Shown: piece after piece, positions 33,032 to 50,416 of the stretch
Layout: every line of letters starts with the position of its first letter
Position numbering within the stretch: position 1 is the first letter of the stretch
Assembly: GCA_030765145.1 (NCBI GenBank)
Contig: JAVCDA010000046.1
Span: forward strand, 6,142 to 70,141
DNA length: 64,000 nt
Direction of reading: 5' to 3'
Origin: Candidatus Saelkia tenebricola
GTDB lineage: Bacteria; Omnitrophota; Gorgyraeia; Kaelpiales; Kaelpiaceae
The notes under the pieces: generated by a model
Database searches by the model: none
What the model was told of the DNA's origin: nothing
What the model saw: only the letters and a program-made list of their open reading frames with translations
Made by a program: the position numbers and the translations under genes

Positions 33032-33063
33032 TGTTATATGGTGAAAATAAAGGAGGTAGCGAA

Positions 33064-33366: not shown

Positions 33367-33368
33367 AA

Positions 33369-33695
33369 ATGCATAGTATAATATTTGCAAAAGATGTTTT
33401 ACCAAAACAGGATGTGAGGGAGGTGAGAATTACCGAAAAGGTAAATAAAGAAGGCGTTTTTGTTTATTCGCGTAGAAGAAGTTTTTATCAAGTAATAGAT
33501 AATGAGGGCAAAATTCCCGTATATGAAACTGATGTAAAACCGGAAATGTATATATATAAGAATATCCAAGATAATAGGAAGTTTTTCCGCTGGAAGGTTA
33601 GAGGAGTTGTAAAATTGCCTCAAGGGAGAAAAACAGCGTCTCTTTTAGCCTATGAACATTCTTTTTGGATGTTTATTAAAGATCAGCCGTCGTAA
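33369..33695 (+). CDS. hypothetical small protein (108 aa)
   Basis: GGAGGAG RBS upstream. Starts 3 nt after the previous stop, which suggests co-transcription. No recognisable motif. Confidence 0.5.
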   Translation: MHSIIFAKDVLPKQDVREVRITEKVNKEGVFVYSRRRSFYQVIDNEGKIPVYETDVKPEMYIYKNIQDNRKFFRWKVRGVVKLPQGRKTASLLAYEHSFWMFIKDQPS

Positions 33696-33784: not shown

Positions 33785-34972
33785 ATGAAGAACGAAGATG
33801 TAGCAAAAATTTATTCTAAATATGTTATGAATACCTATACCCGTATGCCTCTTTCTCTTGCAAAGGGTAAAGGGTCTCGGGTTTGGGATTTAGAGCAGAA
33901 CGAATATCTGGATTTTTTCCCGGGATGGGGTGTATCGGTTTTAGGGCATTGTCCTCCTAAAGTGGTTTCTCACATTAAAGATCAGGTTAAGAAAATTATT
34001 CATGTATCGAATAACTATTATAATCATTTGCAGGCACGAATCGGGAAAATGCTTATTAAAATTACGCGTATTGAAGGAAAAGCTTTTTTCTGTAATTCCG
34101 GAGCCGAAGCGAATGAATCTGCTTTTAAGCTTGCCAGGGCATATGGTAAAGGCGAGAAGTATAAGATCATTACAATGCAGAATTCATTTCATGGCAGAAC
34201 ATTGGGCTGCATTGCTGCTACAGGGCAGGAAAAATACAAAGAAGGATTTGAGCCTATTGTCCCTGGATTTTTACATGCCCCGTTTAACGATATAGAGGCT
34301 GTTAAAAAAACTATAGATAATGAAACAGTTGCAGTAATGCTGGAATTGATTCAGGGAGAAGGTGGAATAAATGTGGCAGATGTGGATTTTGTAAAAGAGT
34401 TAAGAAAAATTTGTGATAATAAAAATTTATTACTTATTATTGATGAGGTTCAGTCCGGTATGGGTAGAACAGGAGAATGGTTCTCATATCAGCACTATGG
34501 AATTACCCCCGACATAATTACTATTGCAAAAGGGATTGCAGGTGGGTTGCCTATGGGGGTTATGATTGCTAAAGATAAGATTGCGGATTGTTTTAAACCC
34601 GGAATGCATGCTTCAACATTTGGAGGTAGTCCTTTGGTATCAAAAGCTGCATTGGGTGTGATTGATACAATTATGAAAAAAAAGCTGCTTAAAAATACAC
34701 GCGAAATGGGAGAGTATTTAAAAAGTTGTTTAATTGAGTTAAAAAATAAATATGTCATAATTAAAGAGGTAAGAGGAATTGGCCTTATGATTGGTGTAGA
34801 GGTTGAAGAGAAAGGCAAAGAGATATTCGATCTTTGTTTTAAAAAAAAGCTATTAATTAATTTGACTCATGGGAATATATTAAGGATTATGCCTGCTATA
34901 AACGTTAGCAAGAAAGAGATAAATAAAGCGATTAATATTTTAAACCAGGTTTTTGAAGAGGTTGTAAAATGA
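33785..34972 (+). CDS. argD: acetylornithine aminotransferase (class III PLP aminotransferase)
   Basis: 'IDEVQSGMGRTGEWF' motif and a PLP-Lys region 'TIAKGIAGG'. Assignment supported by adjacency to argF, argG and argH. Confidence 0.8.
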   Translation: MKNEDVAKIYSKYVMNTYTRMPLSLAKGKGSRVWDLEQNEYLDFFPGWGVSVLGHCPPKVVSHIKDQVKKIIHVSNNYYNHLQARIGKMLIKITRIEGKAFFCNSGAEANESAFKLARAYGKGEKYKIITMQNSFHGRTLGCIAATGQEKYKEGFEPIVPGFLHAPFNDIEAVKKTIDNETVAVMLELIQGEGGINVADVDFVKELRKICDNKNLLLIIDEVQSGMGRTGEWFSYQHYGITPDIITIAKGIAGGLPMGVMIAKDKIADCFKPGMHASTFGGSPLVSKAALGVIDTIMKKKLLKNTREMGEYLKSCLIELKNKYVIIKEVRGIGLMIGVEVEEKGKEIFDLCFKKKLLINLTHGNILRIMPAINVSKKEINKAINILNQVFEEVVK

Positions 34973-35877
34973 AGCATTTATTAAGTATTAATGATTTGAG
35001 TCGTGAAGATATTTTAGAGCTTGTTTCCCTGGCAGAGAGCCTTAAATTGGATAGAAAATTCAGCAATGATTTAAAGAATAAAAACATTATTCTCCTGTTT
35101 GAAAAACCTTCTTTAAGGACAAGAGTTAGTTTTGAAGTCGCAATTGCAGAGCTTAATGGAAAATATTATCATCTTGAAGGTCAAGCAGCTGGAATAGGTA
35201 AACGTGAAGCTGTTAAAGATATAGCTAAAGTGTTATCACGGTATGTGCAGGCTTGTATAATAAGAACGTTTAAACAGGCTGATATACTTGAATTCTCACA
35301 ATATGCATCTATACCTGTTATCAATGCTCTTACCGATTTAGAGCACCCTTGTCAGATTTTAAGTGATTTACTGACTATAAAGGGGAAGATTAACAGATTA
35401 AGTGAATTTAAAATTGCTTTTATCGGGGATGGTAATAATGTCAGCCATTCTTTAATACAAGCAGCAGCAATTTTAGGTTTTGATTTATCAATTGCTACAC
35501 CTTCTGGTTATGAGCCTAAAGATGAAATATTAATCCCTGCTCTTAAAAAAGCGGAGCAAACTAATGCAAAAATCAATGTTTCAAATAATGTCCAAGATGC
35601 GGTAAAAAACGCTGATTTTATTTATACAGATGTCTGGACATCAATGGGGCAGGAGAAAGAAAAGCACTTGAGAAAGCAAATATTTAAGGATTTTCAAATA
35701 AATGAGCAGTTGTTAAGCAGCCTATCCCGGAAGTGTTATATTATGCATTGCTTGCCTGCCCATAGGGGAGAGGAGATAACAGATAAAGCTGTTGATTCTG
35801 AACATTCTATCGTTATAGATCAGGCAGAAAACAGGTTGCATATGCATAAAGCTATTCTGATTAAATTGTTTTCTTAG
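34969..35877 (+). CDS. argF: ornithine carbamoyltransferase
   Basis: 'SLRTR', 'HCLPA' and 'DVWTSMG' motifs. Confidence 0.9.
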   Translation: MKHLLSINDLSREDILELVSLAESLKLDRKFSNDLKNKNIILLFEKPSLRTRVSFEVAIAELNGKYYHLEGQAAGIGKREAVKDIAKVLSRYVQACIIRTFKQADILEFSQYASIPVINALTDLEHPCQILSDLLTIKGKINRLSEFKIAFIGDGNNVSHSLIQAAAILGFDLSIATPSGYEPKDEILIPALKKAEQTNAKINVSNNVQDAVKNADFIYTDVWTSMGQEKEKHLRKQIFKDFQINEQLLSSLSRKCYIMHCLPAHRGEEITDKAVDSEHSIVIDQAENRLHMHKAILIKLFS

Positions 35878-36058
35878 AAGTTATTCAGTTGAAAATCAAA
35901 GAAACGGTTCTCTAATCTGTGTTATTTTATCTGACTTGACTTGTTACTGATGGATTTTTAAGTTTACAGTGTTTAAATATTAGTATTTTTAAAGTTTTTC
36001 ACTATAGAAAATTTGTATGTTTTACGGTATCATAAAGGGCAATAACAGGAGGTAATTT

Positions 36059-37240
36059 ATGTCTAAAAAAGTAGTATTAGCATATTCAGGTGGTCTTGAT
36101 ACAACTGTTGCAATACCGTGGCTTAAAGAGCGAGGATATGAGGTCATTGCTTTTAGCGCCGATGTTGGTCAAGGGGAGAAAAGATTTGATGTTATATCAA
36201 AAAGAGCAAAGATTGCAGGCGCAAAAAAGATTATTGTAAAAGATTTAAGAAGGGAATTTATTCAGAATTATGCTTTTAAAGCATTAAAAGCTCATGCTTT
36301 ATATGAAGATAAATATTACCTTGCAACTGCTCTTTCCCGCCCTTTGATAGCAAAAAACTTAATAGATATTGCAAAAAAAGAGAAAGCCGATGCAGTCGTA
36401 CATGGCTGTACAGGAAAAGGTAATGACCAGGTAAGATTTGAAGTTACTATAAAGGTGTTAGCTCCGAAGTTAAAAATAATTGCTCCGTTGCGTGACTGGG
36501 AATTGAAAAGCAGAGCAGAAGAAATTGAGTATGCTAAAAAGAGAAAAATTCCTATTGAAATTAAAGATTCAGCTTATAGCATTGATAGGAATATATGGGG
36601 TGTAAGTATCGAATGCGGAGTTTTAGAAGAAATAGATAAAGAAGCTCCTGAGGATGTATTTCTTATTACGAATTCAATAGAAAAGGCGCCTAAAAATGGA
36701 GAGTATGTTGAGATTGAATTTAAAAAAGGTCTTCCCGTAGGGCTGAATGGCAAAGCGATGGATTCTGTAAAATTGGTGGAAAGTCTAAATAAGATTGGTG
36801 GAAAACACGGAATCGGGCGGGTTGATATGATTGAGAATAGACTCATTGGAATTAAAAGCAGGGAAATATATGAGTCTCCGGCAGCTGCACTTTTATACTT
36901 TGCACATAGAGAGTTAGAGTCGCTTATTCTTGACAGGGAGAGTTCCCACTTTAAAAATATTGTTTCTCAAAAATATGCTGAGATTATTTATTATGGGCTT
37001 ATGTGTACGCCTTTAAAATCATCTTTAGATGCATTTATAGATACATCTCAAACGCATCTAACAGGAAAGATAAAATTAAAGTTGCAGAAAGGGAATATAA
37101 AAGCAGCATCAAGAGAGTCTAAATTCTCCAAATATAATATAAAACTTGCAACATATGGTAAGGGAGATATGTTTGACCATAAGGCTTCTGAGGGATTCAT
37201 AAAAATATGGGCTCAGACTTTTCAGGGAGAGATAAAATGA
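36059..37240 (+). CDS. argG: argininosuccinate synthase
   Basis: 'AYSGGLDTT' PP-loop; 393 aa. Confidence 0.95.
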   Translation: MSKKVVLAYSGGLDTTVAIPWLKERGYEVIAFSADVGQGEKRFDVISKRAKIAGAKKIIVKDLRREFIQNYAFKALKAHALYEDKYYLATALSRPLIAKNLIDIAKKEKADAVVHGCTGKGNDQVRFEVTIKVLAPKLKIIAPLRDWELKSRAEEIEYAKKRKIPIEIKDSAYSIDRNIWGVSIECGVLEEIDKEAPEDVFLITNSIEKAPKNGEYVEIEFKKGLPVGLNGKAMDSVKLVESLNKIGGKHGIGRVDMIENRLIGIKSREIYESPAAALLYFAHRELESLILDRESSHFKNIVSQKYAEIIYYGLMCTPLKSSLDAFIDTSQTHLTGKIKLKLQKGNIKAASRESKFSKYNIKLATYGKGDMFDHKASEGFIKIWAQTFQGEIK

Positions 37241-38613
37241 AAGAGAAATTATGGGGTGGAAGATTTAAAGAGGCTTTGGATTCTCTTGTTTTTGATTTTA
37301 CCAAAAGCATAGAATATGACTGGTTTTTGTTTGAATATGAAGCATATTCAAATATTGCCTGGGTTGAAGAGTTGAACCGTTTAAAACTTATAACTTCTTC
37401 TGAAGCTAAAAAACTAGTTAAATCAATAAAGGAACTTTTGGAAGATTATTTTAAAGGCAAAGCAAAAATTGATTTCAAGGAAGAGGATATTCATTCGTTA
37501 TTTTATAAACTTCTAAGAAAAAAAGCGGGTGATTTGACGGATAAAATACATGCCGGTAAAAGCAGAAATGAACAGGTTGTAACTGTGATGAGAATGTTCC
37601 TAAAGGATGCATTATTAGAGACAGGAGAACTTGTAAAAAATTTGCAAAAATCTATGCTAAAGAAGGCTATGATTTATGCAGGAGTTGTGATTCCGGGATT
37701 TACTCATTTGCAATACGCTCAACCTGTGCTTTTTGCGCATTGGATGTTGTCGTTTGTAACTCAGTTGGAACGTGATAAACAGAGATTAAATGATTGTTTT
37801 ACAAGAGTTGATATTCTGCCGTTGGGAAGCGGAGCGCTTTCAGGAAGCAATTTTAATATAGACAGAGAGCGAATAAAACAAGATTTATCTTTTGCCTCAA
37901 TAGGCAGCAATAGCATGGATATGGTGAGTGACAGAGATTTTATATTGGAATATTTGAATTGCAATTTAATGTTGTTATTACACTTAAGCAGAATGGCTGA
38001 GGATTTGATAATTTATAATAGTCCGGGATATGGTTTTATTGATTTTGGAGATAAAGTCACAACCGGTTCCAGCCTTATGCCTCATAAAAAGAATCCAGAT
38101 CCTGTTGAGCTGATAAGATCCTCGGTTGCTGAGGCGTTATCAAGCTATACTTTTTTGACGAATGTTTTAAAAGGATTGCCGACAACATACAACCGTGATT
38201 TACAATTGGACAAGAAGCCTTTATTTGCATCGTATCTTCTAACAATAAGAGTTCTTGATGTTGCAAGGATTGTAATATCCCAGATGTTCGTCAATAAAAA
38301 GAGAGCATCTGAATTGCTCTGCGATGAGAGGTTTTATCTGACAGATATATCGGAAGAATTGATTAAGCAGGGTCTTTCCTGGAAAGAGGCGCATACAAAG
38401 GTTGGCGAGTTAATAAAATATGCAGAGTCAAATCACCAGGCTATAAATAAGTTAGATAAATCTGTTATTAAGAATATTTTGTCTCGGGATATTAAAATAA
38501 ACGAATATCTAAATGCTGATAAATCTGTAAACCGGAAATTAACTACAGGTTCTACTAACAAGAAATACGTGGGAAGAGAAATTAAAAAGTGGCAGCGGAT
38601 TTTGGAGTCATAA
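37237..38613 (+). CDS. argH: argininosuccinate lyase
   Basis: 'MKEKLWGGRF' N-terminus and the fumarate-lyase signature 'GSSLMPHKKNPD'. ATGA overlap with the argG stop. Confidence 0.9.
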   Translation: MKEKLWGGRFKEALDSLVFDFTKSIEYDWFLFEYEAYSNIAWVEELNRLKLITSSEAKKLVKSIKELLEDYFKGKAKIDFKEEDIHSLFYKLLRKKAGDLTDKIHAGKSRNEQVVTVMRMFLKDALLETGELVKNLQKSMLKKAMIYAGVVIPGFTHLQYAQPVLFAHWMLSFVTQLERDKQRLNDCFTRVDILPLGSGALSGSNFNIDRERIKQDLSFASIGSNSMDMVSDRDFILEYLNCNLMLLLHLSRMAEDLIIYNSPGYGFIDFGDKVTTGSSLMPHKKNPDPVELIRSSVAEALSSYTFLTNVLKGLPTTYNRDLQLDKKPLFASYLLTIRVLDVARIVISQMFVNKKRASELLCDERFYLTDISEELIKQGLSWKEAHTKVGELIKYAESNHQAINKLDKSVIKNILSRDIKINEYLNADKSVNRKLTTGSTNKKYVGREIKKWQRILES

Positions 38614-38616
38614 ACT

Positions 38617-39858
38617 ATGCATAGATTTAATTATCAAAGGTCTAATTTGTATGCTGAAGGAATAAAGGTGGAGAATATAATCAAACAGTTTGGTACTCCG
38701 CTGTATATTTACAGTGCTAATACAATCCTGGATCATTTTTTTAAATTGAAGCATGCTTTTAAGGTGCTTAATCCTTTGATTTGTTTTAGCATGAAATCCA
38801 ATTCTAGCTTAGCTATTATACGTCTTCTTGTTAAAAGCGGTTCCGGGATTGATGTTGTTTCTGGTGGTGAGTTGTATAAAGCAATTAAAGCAGGTTGTCC
38901 TGGGGTAAAAATTGTCTATGCCGGGGTAGGTAAAAGAGAGGACGAAATTGAAACTGCAATTAAAGCAGGTATTTTATTTTTTAATGTCGAATCTGTTCCG
39001 GAATTGGAAAAGATAAATAAAATTGCCAAAAGGTGTAAAAAAATACAAAGCGTTTGTATTAGGCTTAATCCGGATGTTGATGCTAAAACACATAAGTATA
39101 TTACAACTGGCAAAAAAGAAACCAAATTTGGTCTTCCATATAAAGTAGCGAAGAGTATATTTAAAAATAAATCCAAGTATAAAAATGTAAAGATTGAAGG
39201 GATTCATCTTCATATCGGGTCTCAAATCGTACGTTTAGACCCTTTTTTAAAAGCAATTAAAGTTGCTTTGGAATTAAAGAAGGAAGTAGACTTTGAATAC
39301 TTAAATATCGGTGGGGGTTTGGGAATAATTTATAAAAATGAGAAACCATTGCTACCTGATCAATATGCCAGAGAAATAGAAAAACTTCTTAAAGGAAGCA
39401 AGGTAAAGTTAATTCTTGAGCCTGGAAGGTTTATTGTCGGTAATGCTGGTATTTTAGTAACACGGGTAGTATATTTTAAAAAAGGAATTAATAAGAATTT
39501 CGCAATTACAGATGGAGGAATGAATTTACTTCTTAGGCCGGCATTATATGAGGCATATCATGAAATAAATTTGGTTAAGAAAAAAAACAAACCTAAAGTT
39601 AAAATGGATATAGTAGGTCCAGTTTGCGAAAGTTCTGATTTTCTGGGTCAAGACAGGATTTTACCTGTCCCTAAGGAAGGGGAAGCATTGGCTGTTTTTG
39701 GAGCTGGGGCATATGGGTCTGCGATGGCTTCTGTTTACAATGGCCATCCTCTTTGCGCAGAAGTATTGGTTAACGAAAAAGAAGTTTATTTGGTTAAGAA
39801 GAAGGAGAACTACAGGGATTTAATTCAGAATGATTTAATTCCTGATTTTTTAAGATGA
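38617..39858 (+). CDS. lysA: diaminopimelate decarboxylase
   Basis: Fold-III PLP decarboxylase with 'CESSDFLG' and 'GAGAYG'. Confidence 0.9.
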   Translation: MHRFNYQRSNLYAEGIKVENIIKQFGTPLYIYSANTILDHFFKLKHAFKVLNPLICFSMKSNSSLAIIRLLVKSGSGIDVVSGGELYKAIKAGCPGVKIVYAGVGKREDEIETAIKAGILFFNVESVPELEKINKIAKRCKKIQSVCIRLNPDVDAKTHKYITTGKKETKFGLPYKVAKSIFKNKSKYKNVKIEGIHLHIGSQIVRLDPFLKAIKVALELKKEVDFEYLNIGGGLGIIYKNEKPLLPDQYAREIEKLLKGSKVKLILEPGRFIVGNAGILVTRVVYFKKGINKNFAITDGGMNLLLRPALYEAYHEINLVKKKNKPKVKMDIVGPVCESSDFLGQDRILPVPKEGEALAVFGAGAYGSAMASVYNGHPLCAEVLVNEKEVYLVKKKENYRDLIQNDLIPDFLR

Positions 39859-40670
39859 AAGTTATTACATTTTCTAAAGCAGTTGCAACAGGTAATGATT
39901 TTGTGATTATAGAGAATAAAAAATATTCCACTAAAATTCTTAAATCTCTGGCTCAAAAATTATGCCTCAGAAAATATGGTATTGGCGCTGATGGTCTTTT
40001 GGTATCTCAAGAATCTAAGAAGGCTGATATTAAAATGAGAATTTTTAATTCCGATGGATCTGAGGCAGAAATGTGTGGTAATGGTATAAGATGTTTTATA
40101 CTATGGGCTTACAGAATGGGGTTAATAAAAAGTGTTTCTTTTGTTGAAACTATAGCTGGTGTGATTAAAGGTAAAGTTAAAAGTAATGCTGTGGTTTCTG
40201 TTAAACTGGATGCTTCTTTTGAGTATAAGGCTGGGATAAAAATACCTTTTAAAAACAGGATTTTTAAAGGAGATTATTTGGATACCGGAGTTCCTCATTT
40301 TGTAGTTGCAACTGATGACATAAATAATGTCAATGTTAAATCGTACGGAGAGTTTTTAAGGTATCATAAAATTTTTAAACCTCGAGGTACTAATGTGAAT
40401 TTTATACAGTTTGCAAATAATAAATTGTATGTTAGAACTTATGAAAGAGGAGTTGAAGATGAAACCCTTGCCTGTGGTACGGGGTGTGTTGCTTCAGCAC
40501 TTATATTGGGTAGAAAAAATGGTTATTTGGCCAAAGAATTTACGGTGATACCTAAAAGCAAAGAGAAGCTTAAAATAAGTTATCAGTTAAAAAACGGTGA
40601 GTTTAAAAATGTATATTTAGAAGGCAAAGCAGATATTTTGTTTAGTGCTGAATTCTGCTTTGATAAATAG
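39855..40670 (+). CDS. dapF: diaminopimelate epimerase
   Basis: 'NSDGSEAEMCGNGIRC' with a first catalytic Cys, and a second Cys in 'ACGTGC'. Confidence 0.9.
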   Translation: MKVITFSKAVATGNDFVIIENKKYSTKILKSLAQKLCLRKYGIGADGLLVSQESKKADIKMRIFNSDGSEAEMCGNGIRCFILWAYRMGLIKSVSFVETIAGVIKGKVKSNAVVSVKLDASFEYKAGIKIPFKNRIFKGDYLDTGVPHFVVATDDINNVNVKSYGEFLRYHKIFKPRGTNVNFIQFANNKLYVRTYERGVEDETLACGTGCVASALILGRKNGYLAKEFTVIPKSKEKLKISYQLKNGEFKNVYLEGKADILFSAEFCFDK

Positions 40671-40684
40671 GGGAGGTGAAATTT

Positions 40685-41563
40685 ATGTTCCGTGGTTCTA
40701 TGGTTGCACTTGTTACTCCTTTTAAAAACGGTAAGATTGATAGGAGTGGATTGAAAAAACTAGTTAGGTTTCATATTGATAACAATACTTCTGCTATTGT
40801 TCCCTGTGGAACTACAGGAGAATCTGCCACGCTTTCTTACGATGAGCATAAATTGGTAATTGATATTATTTTAGAGGAGGCGAAGGGTAAGATTCCGATT
40901 ATTGCAGGTACAGGTTCTAATTCTACATGGGAAGCTGTTAAGCTTACAAAATTTGCAAATAGAAAAGGAGTACAAGGTGCTCTTTTAATTTGTCCCTATT
41001 ACAATAAGCCTACGCAGCGCGGGTTATATCATCATTTTAAAGCAATAGCTGAGGAAGTGAATATTCCTTTGATACTTTATAATATACCATCACGTACTGG
41101 CATTAATATGTTGCCTGAAACTATTGCTCGTTTGGGGAGGGATTTTAAGAATATTGTTGGAGTCAAGGAGGCGACAGGAAACTTGGACCAAATGATAGCA
41201 ATTAAAAACATAGCTCCCCGGAATTTTATTTTAATTTCCGGAGATGATGCTTTAACGCTGCCGATTTTATCTATCGGAGGAACGGGGGTAATATCTGTGC
41301 TTGCCAATATTATGCCCAGAGAAGTTGAAGATGTTGTTAGGAAATTTGAAGAAGGAAATATAAAAAAAGCCAGGGAACTTAACTTAAAGCTATATCCTTT
41401 GGTTAAAACAATGTTTGTTGAAACTAATCCCGGGCCTGTAAAAACTGCTATGGGGTTAATGGGAATGATTTCTTCGGAGTTAAGACCGCCTATGTTTAAA
41501 ATGTCTAAAGAAAACGAAAAAATATTAAAAACAACTCTTAAAAAATACGGATTATTGAAATGA
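40685..41563 (+). CDS. dapA: 4-hydroxy-tetrahydrodipicolinate synthase
   Basis: 'MFRGSMVALVTPF' N-terminus typical of DapA. A GGGAGGTG RBS precedes the start. Confidence 0.9.
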   Translation: MFRGSMVALVTPFKNGKIDRSGLKKLVRFHIDNNTSAIVPCGTTGESATLSYDEHKLVIDIILEEAKGKIPIIAGTGSNSTWEAVKLTKFANRKGVQGALLICPYYNKPTQRGLYHHFKAIAEEVNIPLILYNIPSRTGINMLPETIARLGRDFKNIVGVKEATGNLDQMIAIKNIAPRNFILISGDDALTLPILSIGGTGVISVLANIMPREVEDVVRKFEEGNIKKARELNLKLYPLVKTMFVETNPGPVKTAMGLMGMISSELRPPMFKMSKENEKILKTTLKKYGLLK

Positions 41564-42363
41564 AAGTAAAAATTGTTATTTCCGGTTGTTTAGGCAGAAT
41601 GGGTGAAAGAATTGCGTGTTTAGCATTTAATGCATCAGATATTGAAGTTATAGCTGGTATTGAGAAAGAGGATCATCCCTCGATAGGAGAGGATTTGTCT
41701 GAAGTTTTGGGGAAGGGAAGAAGAGGTATCGAAATTACATCTGATTTTAAGCAGGCGATATCTAAATCAGATGTTTTGATAGAATTTACCAGCCCAAAAG
41801 TTACACTCAAACATATTCAAGTTGCATCGGGATTAGGAAAAAAAATTCTAATTGGTACAACAGGATTTGATGAGCAGGGAATTCAGGAAATAAAGAAAAC
41901 GGGTTCTGAAACAGCGGTTTTAATCTCTCCCAATATGAGCATAGGTGTAAATGTGATGTTTAAAATTATGCCTCAGCTTGTAAAATTATTAGGGGAAGAT
42001 TATGATATAGAGATTGTTGAGCTTCATCATAACAAAAAAAAAGATGCTCCCTCGGGGACGGCTAAAAAAATTGCAGAAATTATTTGTGATGCAAGAAGTA
42101 ATCTTAAATGCACATATGGTAGACAGGGGTTAACCGGGCCTCGCGATAAAGATGAACTTGCTATTCATGCTTTAAGATTGGGGGATATTACAGGAGAACA
42201 CAGGATTATATTTGCTGGTAATGATGAAAGAATAGAATTCATACATAGTGCAGGGTCTCGCGATATCTTTGCTGAGGGGGTAATACTTGGGGTTAGATAC
42301 ATCAGAGATAAAAAGAGCGGTTTTTATACTATGGGAGATGTGTTGTCCCAGCGGTTGAGATGA
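41560..42363 (+). CDS. dapB: 4-hydroxy-tetrahydrodipicolinate reductase
   Basis: Rossmann N-terminus and the 'ELHHNKKKDAPSGTA' motif. Confidence 0.9.
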   Translation: MKVKIVISGCLGRMGERIACLAFNASDIEVIAGIEKEDHPSIGEDLSEVLGKGRRGIEITSDFKQAISKSDVLIEFTSPKVTLKHIQVASGLGKKILIGTTGFDEQGIQEIKKTGSETAVLISPNMSIGVNVMFKIMPQLVKLLGEDYDIEIVELHHNKKKDAPSGTAKKIAEIICDARSNLKCTYGRQGLTGPRDKDELAIHALRLGDITGEHRIIFAGNDERIEFIHSAGSRDIFAEGVILGVRYIRDKKSGFYTMGDVLSQRLR

Positions 42364-44087
42364 AAAAAAAAGTAAAAATTGTTCTATTATCTGCTGCTAT
42401 TTTAATAGGTATTGTTATCTCAATAACAGACGTATTCTTTTCTTTTGATCGTAATCTTATTAGCTGGTATCTGAAAGATATTGATATAATTGGAGATGAA
42501 ATAGTTGTAGTGACAGTTGAGGAGGAAAGTTTCGTTGAAGAAAAACTTTGGCCTTGGTCTTCTGGTTGGTCAAAGTACCTGGTTTCATTTATTTTGGACT
42601 TAAAACCAAGAAATCTTGTTCTGGGGTCTCGTTTTGTAAAAGAAGTCAAAGATTTGAATTCTTACGGTAAGATTTTAAGAGATCCACGTCTTGTTATGCC
42701 TTTTAGCAGTAAAGAATCGGTGAGAGAAAATGATGAATCTCCCACTGATTTTATTCAGCAAAGACGGGGATATTTTCACTATTATAACCGGAATAATAAT
42801 TTATCTGAAATAGGTTTTTCAAATTCAGGCGAAAGTGCGTATTCAAAGAAAATGTTTAACAAACAAGGTTTCTATTTTTTACCACAGGATGAAAATGTTA
42901 CGGTTATATCTGCTAATAGTATTGCTCTATCTGGTTTTTTAAAATCTGAAGGTTATAAAGCTCAAGATGAAATCGACTTCATAAAAGATAAAATTGTTCT
43001 TTTGGAAAGTAATGGTGGGGATTTAAATAAAGAAATTTCATTTTTAAGTGCTCAGCTGCATGGAAATGTTTTTCTTGTATTGGCCAGAGAATTTAATGTA
43101 TATATTGCGGTGTTTATGTTTGCGGTTATTTATATATTGCTGAGATCGATTAAACTTAGGAAAGCAATTTTAATATTTTTATTGCTCTTAGGAGGGTCTT
43201 TTATATTTCAGAGAATATACTTTTCTGTTATGAGAATTTATATAGAACTGGCGCCTGTGGTTATATTTGCTTTTTTGGGATTGATAGTATCTGTTTTAGA
43301 GCAGGAGTATGATATGCGTATTCATAGGAAAGACAGGAAGGAAACTCAACTTGCCAGAATGCTGAAAGACAAGGAAATTTTACCCCATTCGATTGTAACA
43401 TCTAATGGTGCAGTGGTGAATGTAACTCGTTATAAAATGGACAAAGTAGGAGGTGATTTCTACCAGTTTTTAGAATTTGCTAAAGGAGAACTCGGGATAG
43501 TGTTAGGCTGGGTTCCGGGCAGTGGGGTTGAAAGAGTGAGGTATATTATGGAGATTGTACATAGCTGGCGGGATTTTGCTTCTGTCTATAAGGAACCTGG
43601 TAAAGTTATTCAAGTACTTAATAATTCTCTGTTTAGATATGCCGAAGAAGGAAAATATACGACTTTTATTTATCTTCTTTATGATGCCAAGAAAGGATTT
43701 TTAAAATATGTTAATGCAGGGCATGATCCTTTAATTTTTGTAGATAAAAAAGAAAATATTAAAATTATCAATGCTCAGGAACCTACACCTTTAGGTATAG
43801 CAAGAGATGTTCCGTTTTATGAGGGAGAAATCAATTTAACAGAAATAGGGGATGCGATGGTCATTGGTTATAGCGGTGGTATTTCCAGATTGATTGCAGA
43901 TTCCGGAGGTTTAAAAAGCGAATTTTTACAGCGATTCAATAGCTATTTGAAGTATGAATCTGGTAAATTGTCAGATGAAGTATTTAGTGATTTTTTGAAA
44001 TATTATTCTAAAAAGCCGGAGGAAGAATGGTCTTTACTCACTTTAAAAATAACGGAGCCAGTAAATCCGATATCAATGTCAATTTAA
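42360..44087 (+). CDS. membrane sensor phosphatase: N-terminal CHASE2-like extracytoplasmic domain, TM helices, C-terminal PP2C (SpoIIE/RsbU-type) Ser/Thr phosphatase
   Basis: A CHASE2-like start 'IVVVTVEEESF...LWPWSSGWSKYL...LDLKPRNL', three hydrophobic helices around residues 250-315, and PP2C motifs 'VGGDFYQF', 'VPGSGVE' and 'NAGHDP'. Confidence 0.7.
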   Translation: MKKKVKIVLLSAAILIGIVISITDVFFSFDRNLISWYLKDIDIIGDEIVVVTVEEESFVEEKLWPWSSGWSKYLVSFILDLKPRNLVLGSRFVKEVKDLNSYGKILRDPRLVMPFSSKESVRENDESPTDFIQQRRGYFHYYNRNNNLSEIGFSNSGESAYSKKMFNKQGFYFLPQDENVTVISANSIALSGFLKSEGYKAQDEIDFIKDKIVLLESNGGDLNKEISFLSAQLHGNVFLVLAREFNVYIAVFMFAVIYILLRSIKLRKAILIFLLLLGGSFIFQRIYFSVMRIYIELAPVVIFAFLGLIVSVLEQEYDMRIHRKDRKETQLARMLKDKEILPHSIVTSNGAVVNVTRYKMDKVGGDFYQFLEFAKGELGIVLGWVPGSGVERVRYIMEIVHSWRDFASVYKEPGKVIQVLNNSLFRYAEEGKYTTFIYLLYDAKKGFLKYVNAGHDPLIFVDKKENIKIINAQEPTPLGIARDVPFYEGEINLTEIGDAMVIGYSGGISRLIADSGGLKSEFLQRFNSYLKYESGKLSDEVFSDFLKYYSKKPEEEWSLLTLKITEPVNPISMSI

Positions 44088-44863
44088 AAAACAACAATGA
44101 TTTGTTGGACTTAGATAAAGAAAAAGAAATTGTTGAATTGCTTTTTGAAGGCCTTAGCAGTTTAGAGCGTGGTATGCGAAGTTTGAGTAGAAATATTACT
44201 ACCCCTGTGGGTAAAATCAGTATTATTGCTGTTGATATGGTGGGTAGAGTTGTAATAGTTGAAATTGGAAAAAGTGATGTAGAAGATCTAATTTTTAAAG
44301 CTATAGATCATTTTGATTGGGCGTTGACGCATATGAAAGATTTGGAAGAAAGGTATCAATTCTATAATATTGATCCTACTCTGGCTCCCAGGATTGTCAT
44401 TCTTGCTCCGAATTATTCTGAAAAATTTATTAAAAGGGCGACTTACTTAAATCCTACTTTTATTGACATCTATGAGTATCAAATTAAGGAAAGTATGGGA
44501 ACAAGAAAGGTTTATTTCAGGCCTTTTTCATTTATTAATCATAAAAAATGGATTATATATTTAAGGACGAAGTCAATAGATGATCACTTGAACTATTTGG
44601 AAAACGATGTTTTAAGAGAAGGATTAAAAAGTTTATTAGTTGAGGCTCAATCTTTAAGGAATGATTGTATAATAGATACTTCTTTGGGGTATGTTAAGTT
44701 TAAAGATAAAAGCGAAAATATTATTTTAGGGATATATATGTTAAAGAATTCTTTTTGGATTAATTGGGAGGAGAAAAGATGGGGTGGGCATTTCATCAAA
44801 AATAAAGACGATTTTAATGTTTTAAAGACAACTATTTTACGAGTTATCAGGAAGGAGGTATAA
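44027..44863 (+). CDS. hypothetical protein with an N-terminal RecB-family (PD-(D/E)xK, NucS/DUF91-like) nuclease-like motif
   Basis: 'ISIIAVDMVGRVVIVEIGKSD...KAIDHFDWA' resembles the D...E-x-K core of NucS/COG1637 nucleases. The C-terminal 150 aa are unknown. The start is uncertain (ATG 44027, TTG 44102 or ATG 44174). Confidence 0.4.
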   Translation: MVFTHFKNNGASKSDINVNLKNNNDLLDLDKEKEIVELLFEGLSSLERGMRSLSRNITTPVGKISIIAVDMVGRVVIVEIGKSDVEDLIFKAIDHFDWALTHMKDLEERYQFYNIDPTLAPRIVILAPNYSEKFIKRATYLNPTFIDIYEYQIKESMGTRKVYFRPFSFINHKKWIIYLRTKSIDDHLNYLENDVLREGLKSLLVEAQSLRNDCIIDTSLGYVKFKDKSENIILGIYMLKNSFWINWEEKRWGGHFIKNKDDFNVLKTTILRVIRKEV

Positions 44864-46033
44864 GTGAATGTTATTTTTGAAAGTTCTCAAAAGCTAGGTA
44901 AGTTACCGCCGTATCTTTTTGTTGAAATAGATAGGCTGAAGAAAAAACTGCTTGAGGCAGGTGAAGATATAATAAATTTAGGTATTGGGGATCCGGATCT
45001 TGCTACACCTCAAGAGATAATAGATGAGTTAAATAGAACTTCACGTGATGCTAAAAACCATTGTTATCCTATGGATTTAGGAGTTAAAGAGTTAAGATAC
45101 GGAATAACAAAGTGGTTTTCAAATAGATTCAGTGTTGATTTAGACCCGGATTGTGAGGTCTTACCATTGATAGGTTCCAAGGAAGGTATTGCTCATTTTC
45201 CTCTTGCGGTAGTTAATCCGGGAGATGTGGTTTTAATACCCGAGCCTCTTTATCCTCCGTATAGAAGCGGTGCGATTTTTGCAGGAGCCGAGATGATATA
45301 TTTACCGCTAGAGGAAGAACATGGGTTTTTACCTCAGGTTAAGAGTTTGGATAAAGATATTCTAAAGAAAACAAAAATTCTTTATTTAAACTTCCCTAAT
45401 AATCCTACAACGTCTGTTGTTGATAAGGAATATTTAGAAGATATTGTCCAAATGGCGAGGGAGTTTAACTTTATCATTCTTTATGATGCGGCTTATTCAG
45501 AAATTACTTTTGATGGATTTAAAGCTCCGAGTATCTTAGAAATTAAAGGAGCTAAAGATGTAGCAATAGAATTTCATTCTTTTTCTAAAACGTATAATAT
45601 GACAGGCTGGAGGTTAGGGTGGGCTTGTGGCAATAGAAAACTAGTTGAATACTTACGGCAAGTGAAATCCAATATTGACTCCGGTGTTTTTAATCCTGTG
45701 CAATTTGCCGGAATAAAAGCGCTTGAAATGTATCCCGACCATATAACTCAAGTTAGAGAGATTTATTTAAACAGGAGGGATGTTTTTCTTAATGCTTTAG
45801 GTAAATGCGGCTGGGAGATAGATTATCCAAAATCTACATTTTATATTTGGGCTAAGTTGCCTAAAAATGTTGATTCGACTAAGTTTTGTAAGATGTTACT
45901 TGAAGAATGTCACCTAATCGCTACCCCAGGTATTGGATTTGGACCTTCTGGAGAAGGTTATGTTAGGTTTTCACTTGTCACAACAGAAGAGCGTCTTTTG
46001 GAAGCTGCAAAGAGAATTTCTAAAATTTTGTGA
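44864..46033 (+). CDS. dapL: LL-diaminopimelate aminotransferase-like class I aminotransferase (DapL pathway)
   Basis: 'LPPYLFVEIDRLKKK...INLGIGDPDLATP' N-terminus and a PLP-Lys 'SFSKTYNMTGWRLGWA'. Context of dapA, dapB, dapF and lysA with no dapD/dapE in the window. GTG start. Confidence 0.65.
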   Translation: MNVIFESSQKLGKLPPYLFVEIDRLKKKLLEAGEDIINLGIGDPDLATPQEIIDELNRTSRDAKNHCYPMDLGVKELRYGITKWFSNRFSVDLDPDCEVLPLIGSKEGIAHFPLAVVNPGDVVLIPEPLYPPYRSGAIFAGAEMIYLPLEEEHGFLPQVKSLDKDILKKTKILYLNFPNNPTTSVVDKEYLEDIVQMAREFNFIILYDAAYSEITFDGFKAPSILEIKGAKDVAIEFHSFSKTYNMTGWRLGWACGNRKLVEYLRQVKSNIDSGVFNPVQFAGIKALEMYPDHITQVREIYLNRRDVFLNALGKCGWEIDYPKSTFYIWAKLPKNVDSTKFCKMLLEECHLIATPGIGFGPSGEGYVRFSLVTTEERLLEAAKRISKIL

Positions 46034-46548
46034 GTAAAATCTATATCGGTTTAGGATCTAATCTGGGTAATAAAAAAAATAATTTAGAGACGGCTTTGAT
46101 TGAATTAAAAAAAATAGCAATAGTTAATAAGGTTTCTTCGTTATATCAATCTTCGCCGTGGGGTTATAAAAATCAGGAGGATTTTTATAATGCGGTGGTT
46201 GAGGTAGATGTAGATTTGAGTCCGCAAGAACTTCTTGATAGGTTAAAAGAGATAGAGGCAAAATTTATGTCTGTAAAATCAGTTAGATGGGGACCGAGGA
46301 TTATTGATTTAGATATTCTTTTATATGATCAGCAAATTGTTGATTCTCCGCAGTTAAAAATTCCTCATCCGGAAATTAAAAATAGAATTTTTGTATTGAT
46401 TCCACTTTTAGAATTAAATTCGGAATTAATTGATCCAGATACTAAGATTAAATTTTTAGAGGAGGTATCTTTACTTAAGAGCAATGAGGAAGTTAATAGA
46501 ATAGCATTTTTTAACGAAAAAGAACGAAGATGGAATGAAGATATTTAA
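46030..46548 (+). CDS. folK: 2-amino-4-hydroxy-6-hydroxymethyldihydropteridine diphosphokinase (HPPK)
   Basis: 'YIGLGSNLG' and 'RWGPRIIDLDIL' motifs. Confidence 0.85.
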   Translation: MSKIYIGLGSNLGNKKNNLETALIELKKIAIVNKVSSLYQSSPWGYKNQEDFYNAVVEVDVDLSPQELLDRLKEIEAKFMSVKSVRWGPRIIDLDILLYDQQIVDSPQLKIPHPEIKNRIFVLIPLLELNSELIDPDTKIKFLEEVSLLKSNEEVNRIAFFNEKERRWNEDI

Positions 46549-47380
46549 ATCCGCTAAGAGTGTGCAGAATTATATTTTGTCTCTTAAGAGACAAGGTAGA
46601 AGGATTGGTTTTGTTCCTACCATGGGATGCCTTCACGATGGGCACTTGAGTTTAATTAAGCGTGCCAGAAAAGATAATGATGTTGTTGTATTAAGTATAT
46701 TTATCAATCCGATTCAATTTGGTCCTAATGAGGATTATAAACATTATCCTAGAAGTTTAAAAATGGATTTAATGCTTGCTCGTAATGGGGGAGTAGATGT
46801 TGTGTATTATCCTGATTCCCGAGAGATGTATACTGAAGATCATTGTACTTACGTAGAAGTAAACGGGATATCCGAAGTGCTATGCGGTGAGTTTCGCCCA
46901 GGCCATTTTAAGGGTGTTACAACTGTTTGTGCCAAATTGTTTAATATAGTGCAGCCTGATATAGTTTATTTAGGTAAGAAAGATTATCAGCAGGCGATAA
47001 TTATTAAGCAGATGGTTAAGAATTTGAATATGCCTTTAAGAATTAAAATTGTACCTATCGTAAGAGAAAAAGATGGATTGGCTATCAGTTCAAGAAACAG
47101 AAACCTTACTAAGGGTAACAGAAAACAGGCTCTGGTTATTTTTAAATCATTACAAACTGTTAGAGGATTAGTTAAAGATGGAGTGAAAGATACGGGTAAA
47201 ATAAAAAGTAAAGTTGAAAATATTATTTCAAATATGCCGGGAATCAAGGTAGAATATATCCGAGTTGTAGATTTGAAACTCTTACAACCTGTTGCTGTAA
47301 TCAAAAAACCTGTTCTTTTAGCAATAGTTGTTTGGATTAAAAAAGTACGTTTGATAGATAATATAATTTTAAAACCATGA
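46535..47380 (+). CDS. panC: pantoate--beta-alanine ligase
   Basis: 'GFVPTMGCLHDGHLSL' HIGH-type motif. Confidence 0.9.
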   Translation: MKIFKSAKSVQNYILSLKRQGRRIGFVPTMGCLHDGHLSLIKRARKDNDVVVLSIFINPIQFGPNEDYKHYPRSLKMDLMLARNGGVDVVYYPDSREMYTEDHCTYVEVNGISEVLCGEFRPGHFKGVTTVCAKLFNIVQPDIVYLGKKDYQQAIIIKQMVKNLNMPLRIKIVPIVREKDGLAISSRNRNLTKGNRKQALVIFKSLQTVRGLVKDGVKDTGKIKSKVENIISNMPGIKVEYIRVVDLKLLQPVAVIKKPVLLAIVVWIKKVRLIDNIILKP

Positions 47381-48177
47381 AAATAGGGATTGTTGGAGTT
47401 GGCACAATAGGAAAATCGGTGATTAAAAATGTAATCTCGCAGTATAAGGATAAGTTGAATGCTGTGTTTGTTTATGATCTTGATATTGATAATCTAAAAC
47501 ATGTAAAAGCTGATTTCGAATGGTTAAAACCGGTAAAATCCTTGGAAGAAATAGTTAAAAAAAGTGATTTTTTAGTAGAGTCAGCTTCTGTTGCTTGTGT
47601 TAAGAGCTTAATTCCTCTAATCGAAAAGTATAAAAAAGATGTACTGTTTATGAGTACTGGTGGTCTTTTGTCTCGTGAGGATTTTTTGAAAAAGTCAGAA
47701 GAACAAAGTGTTGAGATAATAATTCCTCATGGAGCTATCGCAGGATTGGATGCCATTAAAGCTGTTAAGTTAGCCGGTATTAAGAGTTTGAGTATAACCA
47801 GCTATAAGCCTGTTAGGTCTCTTTTAGGTTCTCCTTATCTTGTAAAAAATAAAATAAATCTTAAAAATGTTAAAGGTAAAAAACTTATTTTTGAAGGTAG
47901 TGTAAAAGAAGCTGTAAAAGGATTTCCCAAAAGCGTCAATGTTTCAGCTACGCTTCTTTTAAGCTCAGGGTTTAAGGATTTAAAGGTTCGGGTATATGCT
48001 CATGAAGATTCTAAAACGATTATTCATGTAGTAGATGTAGAATCTAATATATCGAATCTGCAGTTGGTTAGTAAAAATTATCCGTCTTTGGATAATCCGA
48101 GGACTTCTGCATTAGCAATTTACTCTGCCTGTGAGCATGTAAGGCAGTATATCTTTAAGAATTTCAATAAAAAGTAA
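47377..48177 (+). CDS. aspartate dehydrogenase-like protein (NadX/DUF108 family)
   Basis: 'MKIGIVGVGTIG' Rossmann motif, 'HGAIAGLDAIKA' and 'NPRTSALA' motifs; about 266 aa. Confidence 0.55.
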   Translation: MKIGIVGVGTIGKSVIKNVISQYKDKLNAVFVYDLDIDNLKHVKADFEWLKPVKSLEEIVKKSDFLVESASVACVKSLIPLIEKYKKDVLFMSTGGLLSREDFLKKSEEQSVEIIIPHGAIAGLDAIKAVKLAGIKSLSITSYKPVRSLLGSPYLVKNKINLKNVKGKKLIFEGSVKEAVKGFPKSVNVSATLLLSSGFKDLKVRVYAHEDSKTIIHVVDVESNISNLQLVSKNYPSLDNPRTSALAIYSACEHVRQYIFKNFNKK

Positions 48178-48198
48178 TTTAAGCTGTAACAATTCTAC

Positions 48199-48227
48199 TT
48201 GCAAAGGAGTATTTTTACTGTTAAAAT
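48199..48227 (+). promoter_or_regulatory. sigma70 promoter of gap (-35 TTGCAA, 17-bp spacer, extended -10 TGtTAAAAT)
   Basis: Hexamers read directly from the sequence, about 50 bp upstream of the gap ATG. Confidence 0.5.
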
Positions 48228-48251
48228 TTTTCTCCAAAAAGAGAAGTATAA

Positions 48252-49289
<1,038 letters not shown>

Positions 49290-49308
49290 GACCATTAATA
49301 TAATTGCT

Positions 49309-49332
49309 GGGGCAGATTTAAAAACTCTGCCC
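49309..49332 (+). terminator. GC-rich hairpin after gap (GGGGCAGA-loop-TCTGCCC), weak or partial terminator
   Basis: 7-8 bp perfect stem with a 9-nt loop. No clear T-tract, so termination may be partial. Confidence 0.35.
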
Positions 49333-49342
49333 TCGGAAATAG

Positions 49343-50416
49343 ATGCGCATTTTAATTGTAAATCCTTTTGGAATCGGGGATGTGATTTTTACCCTTCCTT
49401 TGATTCGAAACTTAAAAAAAACTTTTCCCCACTCACATATCGGGTATCTTTCTAACAGAAGAACTTATCCTATTTTAAGTGTTCAGCCAGAAATAGATTC
49501 CCTTTATGTCTATGAAAAAGATGAGTGGAGAAGTCTGTATAAAACTTCTCGAATAAAAACAATTATTAAATTTGGAAGTTTTTTAAAAAGTATAAAGCGA
49601 ATGAAGTTTGATATAGTTTTTGACCTTTCATTGGCAGGAAAGTTTGGTTTTATTTTCTGGATTTTAGGCATCAAGAAGAGGCTGGGGTATGATTATAAAA
49701 ACAGAGGTATATTTTTGAATAAAAAAATAAAAATGTCTGGGTATTCTAATAAGCATATGGTAGAGTACTACAGTGATTTAGTCGCACTTCTGGGACTTAA
49801 AAGCGAGTTTAAATTTACTAAATTAAGTTTACCTACCTCAGTTATAGACTGGGGGAATGATGAAGTTGCGGAATTGAAAAACAGGTCCAATTTAATTATA
49901 TCTCTTATTCCGGGCGGAGGAGCTAGCTGGGGATCTCAGGCGTATAAGAAACGCTGGGAAGAGGAAAAATATAAGGAGTTGTTAAATCTGATGCTCCGAG
50001 AGATAGACGCAGGAATTTTGCTTCTTGGAGATAAAGAGGATAAAAGTAAATGGGGTAAAGTCCCGAAGCATGATATGGTTTTAAATTATATGGGTGAAAC
50101 TTCTCTTTTGGAATTTGCAGCTTTAATATCAGTTTCAGATTTGGTTGTTACAAATGACGGTGGCCCGGTTCATATAGCTGCGGCATTTTCAATCCCGACA
50201 TTATCTATTTTCGGTCCTGTCTCCGAATCTGTTTATGGCCCGTATCCTAAAGATAATAAACACAGAATTATGAGCTTGAAATTGAATTGCAGGCCCTGTT
50301 ACAAAAATTTTAGAATGCCTTCTTGCAGTCATCATAGGTGTCTTGATGAGCTTAGCGCGGGTGATGTTTTTAAGGAGCTCAAGGAACATTTATCACTGAT
50401 AAAACATGAAAAATGA
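49343..50416 (+). CDS. GT9 glycosyltransferase (ADP-heptose:LPS heptosyltransferase-like)
   Basis: 'ILIVNPFGIGDVIFTLPL' N-terminus and a 'TNDGGPVHIAAA' motif typical of RfaF/WaaC-like GT9 enzymes. Confidence 0.75.
   Translation: MRILIVNPFGIGDVIFTLPLIRNLKKTFPHSHIGYLSNRRTYPILSVQPEIDSLYVYEKDEWRSLYKTSRIKTIIKFGSFLKSIKRMKFDIVFDLSLAGKFGFIFWILGIKKRLGYDYKNRGIFLNKKIKMSGYSNKHMVEYYSDLVALLGLKSEFKFTKLSLPTSVIDWGNDEVAELKNRSNLIISLIPGGGASWGSQAYKKRWEEEKYKELLNLMLREIDAGILLLGDKEDKSKWGKVPKHDMVLNYMGETSLLEFAALISVSDLVVTNDGGPVHIAAAFSIPTLSIFGPVSESVYGPYPKDNKHRIMSLKLNCRPCYKNFRMPSCSHHRCLDELSAGDVFKELKEHLSLIKHEK

Follow-up and report, generated by a model that had tools for sequence, protein, structure and literature searches.

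Which function is served by two genes that sit between dapB and dapL in a cluster for lysine and diaminopimelate (DAP) synthesis is the question raised by a 64-kb stretch of DNA (hereafter the window) from the uncultured bacterium Candidatus Saelkia tenebricola (Omnitrophota). They encode a membrane protein of 575 amino acids (aa) and a protein of 278 aa, and neither product matched a biosynthetic family. We hold, with moderate confidence, that the two genes constitute a conserved, translationally coupled module of two pseudoenzymes, which would act by binding and not by catalysis. This reading builds on the observed folds, the missing catalytic residues, the selection on both genes, the coupled junction between them and their repeated co-occurrence.

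42360..44087, + strand: gene of the membrane sensor of 575 aa, whose PP2C domain is degenerate; a predicted pseudophosphatase (Pfam SpoIIE, E 6e-19; 13 orthologs; AlphaFold2 (AF2) model with a predicted local distance difference test (pLDDT) score of 76.5)
44027..44863, + strand: gene of the 278-aa NucS-C-like and YdhG/DUF5655-like protein, the predicted pseudonuclease partner (23 close homologs; 584 family representatives; AF2 pLDDT 74)

An earlier note on this DNA had described the 575-aa product as a membrane protein with an extracytoplasmic CHASE2-like domain and a SpoIIE/RsbU-type PP2C phosphatase, and a CHASE2-like topology and the PP2C fold were recovered by structure prediction. The AF2 model consists of an N-terminal helix, a domain of ~200 residues, three helices (243-339) and a PP2C-type domain (343-564), for which Foldseek returned Rv1364c, RssB, RsbX and SpoIIE at E ~1e-10. 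This layout matches the published topology of CHASE2 proteins, in which one transmembrane (TM) helix leads into an ectodomain, three more TM helices follow and a cytoplasmic output comes last, and for which the ligand is unknown (PMC5192318). The parts of the sensor are encoded as follows.

42378..42440, + strand: N-terminal TM helix, ~residues 7-27, after the basic MKKKVK (hydrophobic segment; AF2 helix 2-22/24-39)
42441..43085, + strand: extracytoplasmic domain of ~215 aa, reduced, divergent and CHASE2-like, with an invariant WPW (W64-P65-W66; Pfam CHASE2 16 bits, residues 24-121)
43086..43310, + strand: three TM helices, ~residues 243-317, running into a long cytoplasmic helix (AF2 helices 243-261, 266-291 and 297-339)
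43386..44051, + strand: cytoplasmic PP2C-fold domain, residues 343-564, without two metal-binding Asp (Foldseek; motif alignment)

The Pfam SpoIIE model matched residues 376-564 with 69 bits (cut-off 25), and the CHASE2 model (PF05226) scored under its cut-off of 26.3 bits. Matches to PF05226 are present in the ortholog P0035 and in the partner proteins of distant relatives, and alignment with hhalign to canonical CHASE2-SpoIIE proteins extended over residues 207-564 at 97.8% probability, with the block of three TM helices aligned. We accept the modelled ectodomain as a putative 'reduced, divergent CHASE2-like' domain.

The metals of SpoIIE are bound by D628, D746, D795 and the carbonyl of G629, with D628 as the ligand bridging M2 and M1 (PMC5468089). 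Two of these Asp residues are replaced in the window sensor.

43509..43511, + strand: codon of W384, in place of the motif-II Asp (SpoIIE D628; HMMER alignment to Rv1364c 'GDVVGHG' and to canonical 'DVSGKG' proteins)
43875..43877, + strand: codon of G506, in place of the 'TDG' Asp (SpoIIE D746; profile alignment to SpoIIE 3t91, 'ysGGi' versus 'msDGi')

The 'VPGSG' that had been listed as a phosphatase motif turned out to be a degenerate form of the metal-binding DVxGHG motif, its Asp changed to Trp384. Likewise, 'YSGGIS' stands where 'TDG' is expected (Asp to Gly506), and SpoIIE D795 corresponds to E555 when the family profile is compared with SpoIIE 3t91; GGDFY and NAGH are kept. The stretches G383-W384, S505-G506-G507 and E555-E556-W557 are invariant in 12 of 12 aligned orthologs, and the same alignment contains canonical CHASE2-SpoIIE proteins and RsbU-like ones, in which GGDYYD, DVSGKG, NAGH, TDG and DD are all intact. 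Judged by these residues, the phosphatase domain of the sensor is very probably dead. The surroundings of the former active site and the 'switch' helices are nevertheless very strongly conserved; the ratio of nonsynonymous to synonymous substitution rates (dN/dS) was 0.10 for the PP2C domain, 0.30 for the ectodomain and 0.20 for the whole sensor.

The 278-aa protein had been presented as a PD-(D/E)xK nuclease followed by an unknown tail of 150 aa. In the AF2 model residues 1-29 are disordered, an alpha/beta domain spans 30-166, and 182-278 make up a second domain. Foldseek matched the first of these to the nuclease domain of NucS/EndoMS (2vld, 5gke; E 2e-5, probability 1.0), so that the nuclease fold, on which the earlier note had made its proposal depend, is present; the core 'AVD...VVIVEIGK' assigned to it was in the wrong register, the positions of the catalytic residues being S65, E79 and G81. 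The second domain matched 9t2w, 2oc6 and 2i8d with probabilities of 0.94-0.99 at weak E-values of 0.1-0.16, and the supposed tail consists of the rest of the nuclease fold and a putative YdhG/DUF5655-like domain of ~95 aa. The Pfam NucS_C model covered only residues 32-82, where it scored 24.8 bits against a cut-off of 24, and Pfam DUF5655 gave weak matches under its cut-off in distant family members only (best E 3e-4).

44114..44524, + strand: PD-(D/E)xK domain of the NucS C-terminal type, residues 30-166 (Foldseek; Pfam NucS_C; dN/dS 0.048)
44219..44269, + strand: ex-catalytic positions S65 (44219-44221), E79 (44261-44263) and G81 (44267-44269; profile alignment)
44303..44320, + strand: invariant I-D-H-F-D-W, residues 93-98, the mark of the non-canonical class (alignment; class table)
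44570..44863, + strand: basic C-terminal alpha/beta domain, putatively of the YdhG/DUF1801/DUF5655 type, residues 182-278 (Foldseek; weak Pfam DUF5655 in distant members; isoelectric point (pI) 8-10)

Profile alignment placed S65, E79 and G81 at the positions of D160, E174 and K176 of Pyrococcus abyssi NucS, a register that is backed by the crystal sequence of T. kodakarensis EndoMS, whose D165A mutation falls into the same column. The set D70/E79/K82 proposed earlier as catalytic did not hold in this register, D70 not being the catalytic Asp and K82 not being conserved; H95 replaces the active-site Tyr of NucS. Among the close family, position 65 is occupied by D (19 sequences) or S (4) and position 81 by G (16), C (6) or D (1), and D70, E79, H95, D97 and W98 are invariant. 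Since the positions of S65 and G81 drift while their neighbours are frozen, the fold appears to be kept for something other than its ancestral chemistry.

NucS is defined by a DNA-binding domain at its N terminus (residues 1-114 in P. abyssi; PMC5290159), which the 278-aa protein lacks, as it opens with the C-terminal-type domain. The NCBIfam equivalog models for NucS, whose cut-offs are 216 and 252 bits, scored only 31 and 19 bits, respectively. Both window proteins have 100% identical NCBI entries, named 'PP2C family protein-serine/threonine phosphatase' (575 aa) and 'endonuclease NucS' (278 aa). By its sequence the 278-aa protein is not a NucS, and the latter name is an over-annotation.

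The start signals of the second gene lie within the first.

44018..44029, + strand: Shine-Dalgarno GGAGG (44018-44022) and ATG (44027-44029) of the 278-aa gene, within the P-E-E-E-W codons of the sensor

The final base of the E556 codon supplies the A of this ATG and the W557 codon, with its first two bases, the TG; GGAGG sits four bases 5' of it, inside the P-E-E codons. Of the 17 related loci in which the motif occurs, 15 have GAA-GAA-TGG unchanged, with the start signals also the same at synonymous sites, although dS is ~1 elsewhere. Read in the +2 frame, the upstream 'EEWSLLTLKIT' yields the conserved N-terminus 'MVFTHFKNNG' of the downstream protein, whose conservation thus follows at least in part from the overlap. 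The dN/dS of the 278-aa gene was 0.078 and that of its nuclease-fold domain 0.048, lower than the values of dapA, dapB and dapL (0.10-0.13). Both genes are under strong purifying selection.

Related loci revealed the same pair. The close family (56-83% identity) comprises 19 further loci from genomes and metagenomes, all with one arrangement: the PP2C-like gene lies upstream of the NucS-like gene in 16 of 16 loci, dapL follows in all 15 and dapB precedes the PP2C-like gene in all 10 that have sequence there. The pair is thus present in the dap clusters of all close relatives, the synteny that the earlier note had asked after, and the conserved gene order together with the dN/dS values establishes both open reading frames (ORFs) as real genes. 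Across the wider NucS-like family, 12 gene neighbourhoods were examined. The following relatives, 26-31% identical to the 278-aa protein, again adjoin or lie close to PP2C-like genes.

P0144 (L010/L011) and P0147 (L018): after a CHASE2+SpoIIE gene, between ftsK-rodZ-miaB-pgsA and ligT-cinA
P0145 (L015): after a CHASE2+SpoIIE gene, near a SurA-like gene and RNase G
P0148 (L017:1-3500): in the order PP2C-like (CBM30+SpoIIE), ParA/MinD-like, NucS-like, volactin-like
P0177 (L020/L021), Omnitrophota: PilZ fusion before and overlapping a CHASE2+SpoIIE gene (reversed order), after type IV pilus genes

The pilus genes at the last of these loci encode an MshEN/T2SSE ATPase, a T2SSF protein and a tetratricopeptide repeat (TPR) protein.

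The partner PP2C of each of these relatives is degenerate as well, at the same positions but with other residues (motif II K, Q, T or H; TDG Asp changed to A, G, E or S), and the L020 partner has lost the motif-I Asp instead. Such independent lesions on a conserved fold suggest that catalysis was lost long ago. The proposal that the two genes are a functional module was strengthened by the recurrence of the pair in at least four other genomic contexts, and the pairing of the two families is ancient and portable. No mobile-element or defence-island neighbours were found in the contexts seen, the module standing among housekeeping genes throughout.

For the interaction of the two proteins, the direction of signalling and the output of the pair we infer the following scheme. 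The sensor would be a four-pass inner-membrane protein, whose CHASE2-type ectodomain detects an extracytoplasmic or envelope cue. The signal would travel via the TM and switch helices to the dead PP2C domain, which would bind or release the soluble NucS-like/YdhG-like protein without phosphate chemistry, in a manner akin to partner-switching or to an RssB-type adaptor, and the freed or captured partner may then act on a nucleic-acid or protein target. The location between dapB and dapL would provide co-expression with the synthesis of meso-DAP, a cell-wall precursor; it is no sign of an enzymatic role in lysine synthesis. A wider proposal, which we put forward as possible though doubtful, is that this constitutes a novel kind of transmembrane signalling made wholly of pseudoenzymes, in which a dead-PP2C CHASE2 receptor captures or releases a dead PD-(D/E)xK 'H-x-D-W' protein. 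The non-canonical NucS-like domain would then be a general adaptor, wired elsewhere to ParA/MinD ATPases, PilZ (cyclic di-GMP), type IV pili and gas vesicles, and would couple envelope sensing, in Omnitrophota and more widely, to either spatial organisation or gene expression.

Comparison with known systems revealed precedents for the parts. As in the RsbU/RsbV/RsbW and SpoIIE/SpoIIAA/SpoIIAB modules, a SpoIIE-family PP2C domain is found C-terminal to a sensory or regulatory region, the presumed partner is encoded alongside and the switch helices are conserved. Unlike in these partner-switching modules, Trp and Gly stand in the places of D628 and D746, and the partner has a nuclease fold. Genes for STAS proteins, RsbW-type anti-sigma kinases, Hanks kinases or sigma factors were not detected in the 64-kb window when all ORFs of at least 100 aa were searched against Pfam, in agreement with what the earlier note had said of the neighbourhood, and no genes for STAS proteins, RsbW-type kinases or sigma factors were seen in the related loci.

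The PP2C-like domain of Escherichia coli RssB is a pseudophosphatase that serves as a binding adaptor (PMC6546054, PMC3877760). RssB was among the best Foldseek matches of the window sensor, for which the same use of a non-catalytic PP2C fold in regulated protein-protein binding is predicted; RssB, however, is soluble, has an N-terminal receiver and delivers sigma-S to ClpXP, whereas the window protein is a CHASE2-type membrane sensor. With other CHASE2 receptors (histidine kinases, cyclases and canonical CHASE2-SpoIIE proteins) the sensor shares the order of TM helix, ectodomain, three TM helices and output and the WPW/FPW motif, and, starting at the end of its ectodomain, it aligns profile to profile with canonical CHASE2-SpoIIE proteins; the ectodomain is ~100 residues shorter and under the Pfam cut-off, and its output is catalytically degenerate. 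The 278-aa protein has the C-terminal RecB-like PD-(D/E)xK fold of NucS/EndoMS (P. abyssi 2vld, T. kodakarensis 5gke) including the 'G-x-I-D-I-L-A-V-D...V-I-V-E' surroundings, but differs in the absent N-terminal domain, the change of D and K to S and G and the additional putative YdhG/DUF5655-like domain. The relatives with an intact triad, here called class 1 (NucS_C + DUF5655-like, of the PDC-S11/S18 kind), have the same two domains (profile E down to 1e-28); unlike the window protein they keep D-E-K, Q and Y, and none of the cases seen showed them paired with a PP2C gene. Among the papers searched, none contained a description of a pairing of CHASE2/SpoIIE with NucS/DUF91 proteins or of a function for DUF5655. 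PP2C pseudophosphatases and inactivated PD-(D/E)xK folds are known kinds of protein, which look to be joined here as an undescribed two-gene module.

Several observations weigh against two dead proteins that work as a pair. Both AF2 models were built from shallow alignments (12-16 sequences) and have pLDDT values of 74-76. D366 of GGDFY and E555 are still present in the PP2C domain. The nuclease-fold domain is acidic (pI 5.0-5.7), which does not speak for DNA binding. At one locus, from a deeper lineage (L016:3551-6284), the NucS-like protein P0146 is encoded in the dapB-dapL slot and no PP2C gene is found. The partner is thus able to work, or at any rate to be kept, where no sensor gene adjoins it; that lineage has either lost the sensor or encodes it at another place. 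Finally, the wider non-canonical class shows a coordinated change, with D/E for K, R/K for Q and H for Y, and judged from these residues its site could be remodelled in the manner of BamHI and not dead. An active site of the BamHI type has three acidic residues. The window protein, with S65 and G81, fits the remodelled pattern poorly. Charge was also tried as a test of DNA binding; with an acidic nuclease-fold domain and a basic C-terminal domain (pI 8-10) it was not decisive.

The locus itself suggests another explanation, in which the pair is devoted to regulating the dap/lysine (peptidoglycan-precursor) cluster. DNA, RNA or enzymes of the operon would be the targets of the NucS-like protein, the sensor would inform on the state of the cell wall or of DAP, and the two would stand in for the lysine riboswitch of other bacteria. 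Every close relative has the pair at this place between dapB and dapL, and the L016 protein in the same slot, 31% identical to the window protein by tblastn (DapB 38%), appeared as sister to the window family in a neighbour-joining tree without support values. Its presence there makes the NucS-like gene an old associate of the slot; its triad is further degenerate (F/E/F). An Rfam scan of the window at gathering thresholds detected two tRNAs only and no lysine riboswitch, and the other neighbourhoods are also envelope-related (pgsA, rodZ, ftsK, surA-like, lpxL/lptC), a link that is guilt by association only. Against a dedicated regulator stand at least four other contexts of the pair without dap genes nearby, the fact that no DNA-binding motif was found, together with the acidity of the nuclease-fold domain, and the composition of the cluster, which is wider than lysine. 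The genes flanking the pair were identified with Pfam and NCBIfam (lysA, dapF, dapA, dapB, dapL), the immediate neighbours being the following.

41560..42363, + strand: dapB, 4-hydroxy-tetrahydrodipicolinate reductase (TIGR00036, 1.3e-79; Pfam DapB_N and DapB_C)
44864..46033, + strand: dapL, LL-diaminopimelate aminotransferase (TIGR03540, 5.7e-161; NF006756 535 bits, over its cut-off)

The ORF table confirmed the coordinates in the earlier note, 41560-42363 for dapB, 42360-44087 for the 575-aa ORF, 44027-44863 for the 278-aa ORF and 44864-46033 for dapL, and its overlapping or abutting junctions: -4 nucleotides (nt; an ATGA overlap) between dapB and the 575-aa ORF, -61 nt between the two ORFs and 0 nt between the 278-aa ORF and dapL. 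These genes belong to a single co-directional cluster, argD-argF-argG-argH-lysA-dapF-dapA-dapB-X-Y-dapL-folK-panC-aspDH, X and Y denoting the pair. It forms an unbroken block (33785-48177) of genes for arginine, lysine/DAP, folate (folK), pantothenate (panC) and NAD (aspartate dehydrogenase), and most of the pathways in this block consume aspartate. With asd, found at another place in the window, the DapL pathway is complete (lysA, dapF, dapA, dapB, dapL, asd), no step being left for the pair to fill. In so packed and co-directional a genome the position may be historical. The earlier description of the pair as inserted into the lysine operon overstated the link, as the module also occurs away from dap genes and coupling is genome-wide. 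A regulator dedicated to this cluster is on balance unlikely.

The wider NucS-like family suggests a further alternative. An exhaustive profile search collected 584 representatives at E ≤ 1e-3. Among the best 150 of these, 90 have the D-E-K triad (87 of them also the Gln and Tyr of NucS) and 60 lack it and form the non-canonical class, into which the window protein falls; in the commonest non-canonical pattern (31 representatives) Lys is gone, Gln is changed to Arg or Lys and Tyr to His. A search with a profile of class-2 members detected mainly sequences of the close family, together with a lone Acidobacteriota-like branch that has no PP2C neighbour. The non-canonical domain may be an adaptor for localisation or positioning, partnering ParA/MinD-type ATPases and membrane landmarks to tether or position something relative to the sensor, and would then not pass on a transcriptional signal. 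Relatives of the same class adjoin genes for ParA/MinD-like ATPases (L017, L019, L022), some carry the ParB-like 'LGRGLEDVSHLFLS' peptide, and others are PilZ fusions with an 'RWLWKK' tail beside type IV pilus genes or, in one case, lie beside gas-vesicle genes. A ParA/MinD-like gene is, however, absent from the window and from the sides of the close-family module, the window protein has neither the LGRGL peptide nor a PilZ domain, and the basis is five neighbourhoods only. We regard a positioning role as rather improbable.

Some of these relatives deserve mention in their own right. Short non-canonical NucS-like proteins (~170-265 aa) have no C-terminal domain and share the conserved N-terminal peptide 'LGRGLEDVSHLFLS', which we take to be ParB-like; they include P0202 (L022:4792-6604, L023:591-1280), P0190, P0198, P0203, P0205, P0252, P0262 and P0275. 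At L022 the gene of this type directly follows one in which a ParA/MinD-like ATPase is joined to a glycogen-binding CBM48 domain, and the short proteins may be an undescribed family of ParA partners. Fusions of PilZ with a non-canonical NucS-like domain and a C-terminal 'RWLWKK'-type tail were found in P0177 (L020/L021:6001-8657), P0171, P0204 and P0221. At L019:545-3296 a non-canonical NucS-like gene lies beside gas-vesicle gvpK and gvpL/F, after a partial ParA-like ORF.

According to the reading closest to the earlier note, an active CHASE2-regulated PP2C controls, or is co-translated with, an active NucS-like nuclease in a signalling, defence or toxin-like module. Both folds are present, the SpoIIE and NucS_C scores are at or over their cut-offs, GGDFY and NAGH are kept, and class-1 relatives match the PADLOC candidate defence proteins PDC-S11/S18 (E 1e-9 to 1e-14). 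Two of the three metal-binding Asp of the PP2C domain are nevertheless gone in all orthologs, the nuclease Asp and Lys have become Ser and Gly, the neighbours are housekeeping genes in every context, and the GC content is even across the region. The idea of a defence or toxin function found no backing in PADLOC-DB 2.0, where the sensor had no match and the 278-aa protein only one that is not credible (PDC-S11; E 0.003, 14.6 bits). Two active enzymes are thus very improbable here. The class-1 proteins P0150 and P0153 combine NucS_C and DUF5655-like domains with an intact D-E-K and match PDC-S11 and PDC-S18; one member of a class-1 cluster, from a Methanomethylicaceae archaeon, is annotated as NucS, and evidence of the NucS N-terminal domain is lacking for it.

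That the two genes are functionally unlinked neighbours in a compact genome, for which one could cite that nearly all window genes lie on the + strand, that about half of their junctions overlap (a habit of the genome, so that coupling is not peculiar to this pair) and that scans for promoters and terminators in 35500-49500 gave results no different from those of shuffled sequence, is the least probable explanation, and a very remote one, as the families are adjacent in at least five neighbourhoods at 26-31% identity, once in reversed order, and the start signals of gene 2 are conserved within gene 1.

A second copy of the module in the window was suspected upstream of ligT/cinA (11897-12948, minus strand), the convergent pair by which the module is flanked in L010 and L018; it was ruled out, the candidates being dnaK, dnaJ, DUF1015 and accD. 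ligT and cinA are the only minus-strand genes in that part of the window, and as they are preceded by accD, the gene order around the module differs between lineages. An 'empty site' was considered after the pgsA-like gene (57317-57859); next to that gene lie der and plsY instead of ftsK, rodZ or miaB, and nothing could be inferred from it. Elsewhere, at 21465-26055, two ORFs overlap, the first (571 aa) having no Pfam match at E ≤ 1e-5 and running into the start of the second (990 aa). The sole Pfam match of the latter is radical S-adenosylmethionine (residues 260-421), and a GT87-like glycosyltransferase follows. Two tandem small ORFs of 111 and 108 aa (33031-33695) and one of 118 aa (59902-60258) gave no Pfam match at E ≤ 0.01.

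The association of these domains was unexpected, and the understanding of lysine biosynthesis itself is left unchanged by the pair. If the module of two pseudoenzymes is real, it would be a bacterial case of paired-pseudoenzyme signalling, with a dead PP2C domain as a ligand-controlled binding module, and would extend the precedent of RssB to membrane receptors. It would define a large non-canonical branch of the NucS_C/DUF91 family (the 60 of the 150 best representatives), whose partners would belong to signalling and positioning and not to DNA repair, and the public names 'endonuclease NucS' and 'PP2C family protein-serine/threonine phosphatase' would have to be corrected. For CHASE2, a widespread domain whose ligand is unknown, it would offer a handle in a minimal, conserved two-gene setting that is co-expressed with the synthesis of a cell-wall precursor.

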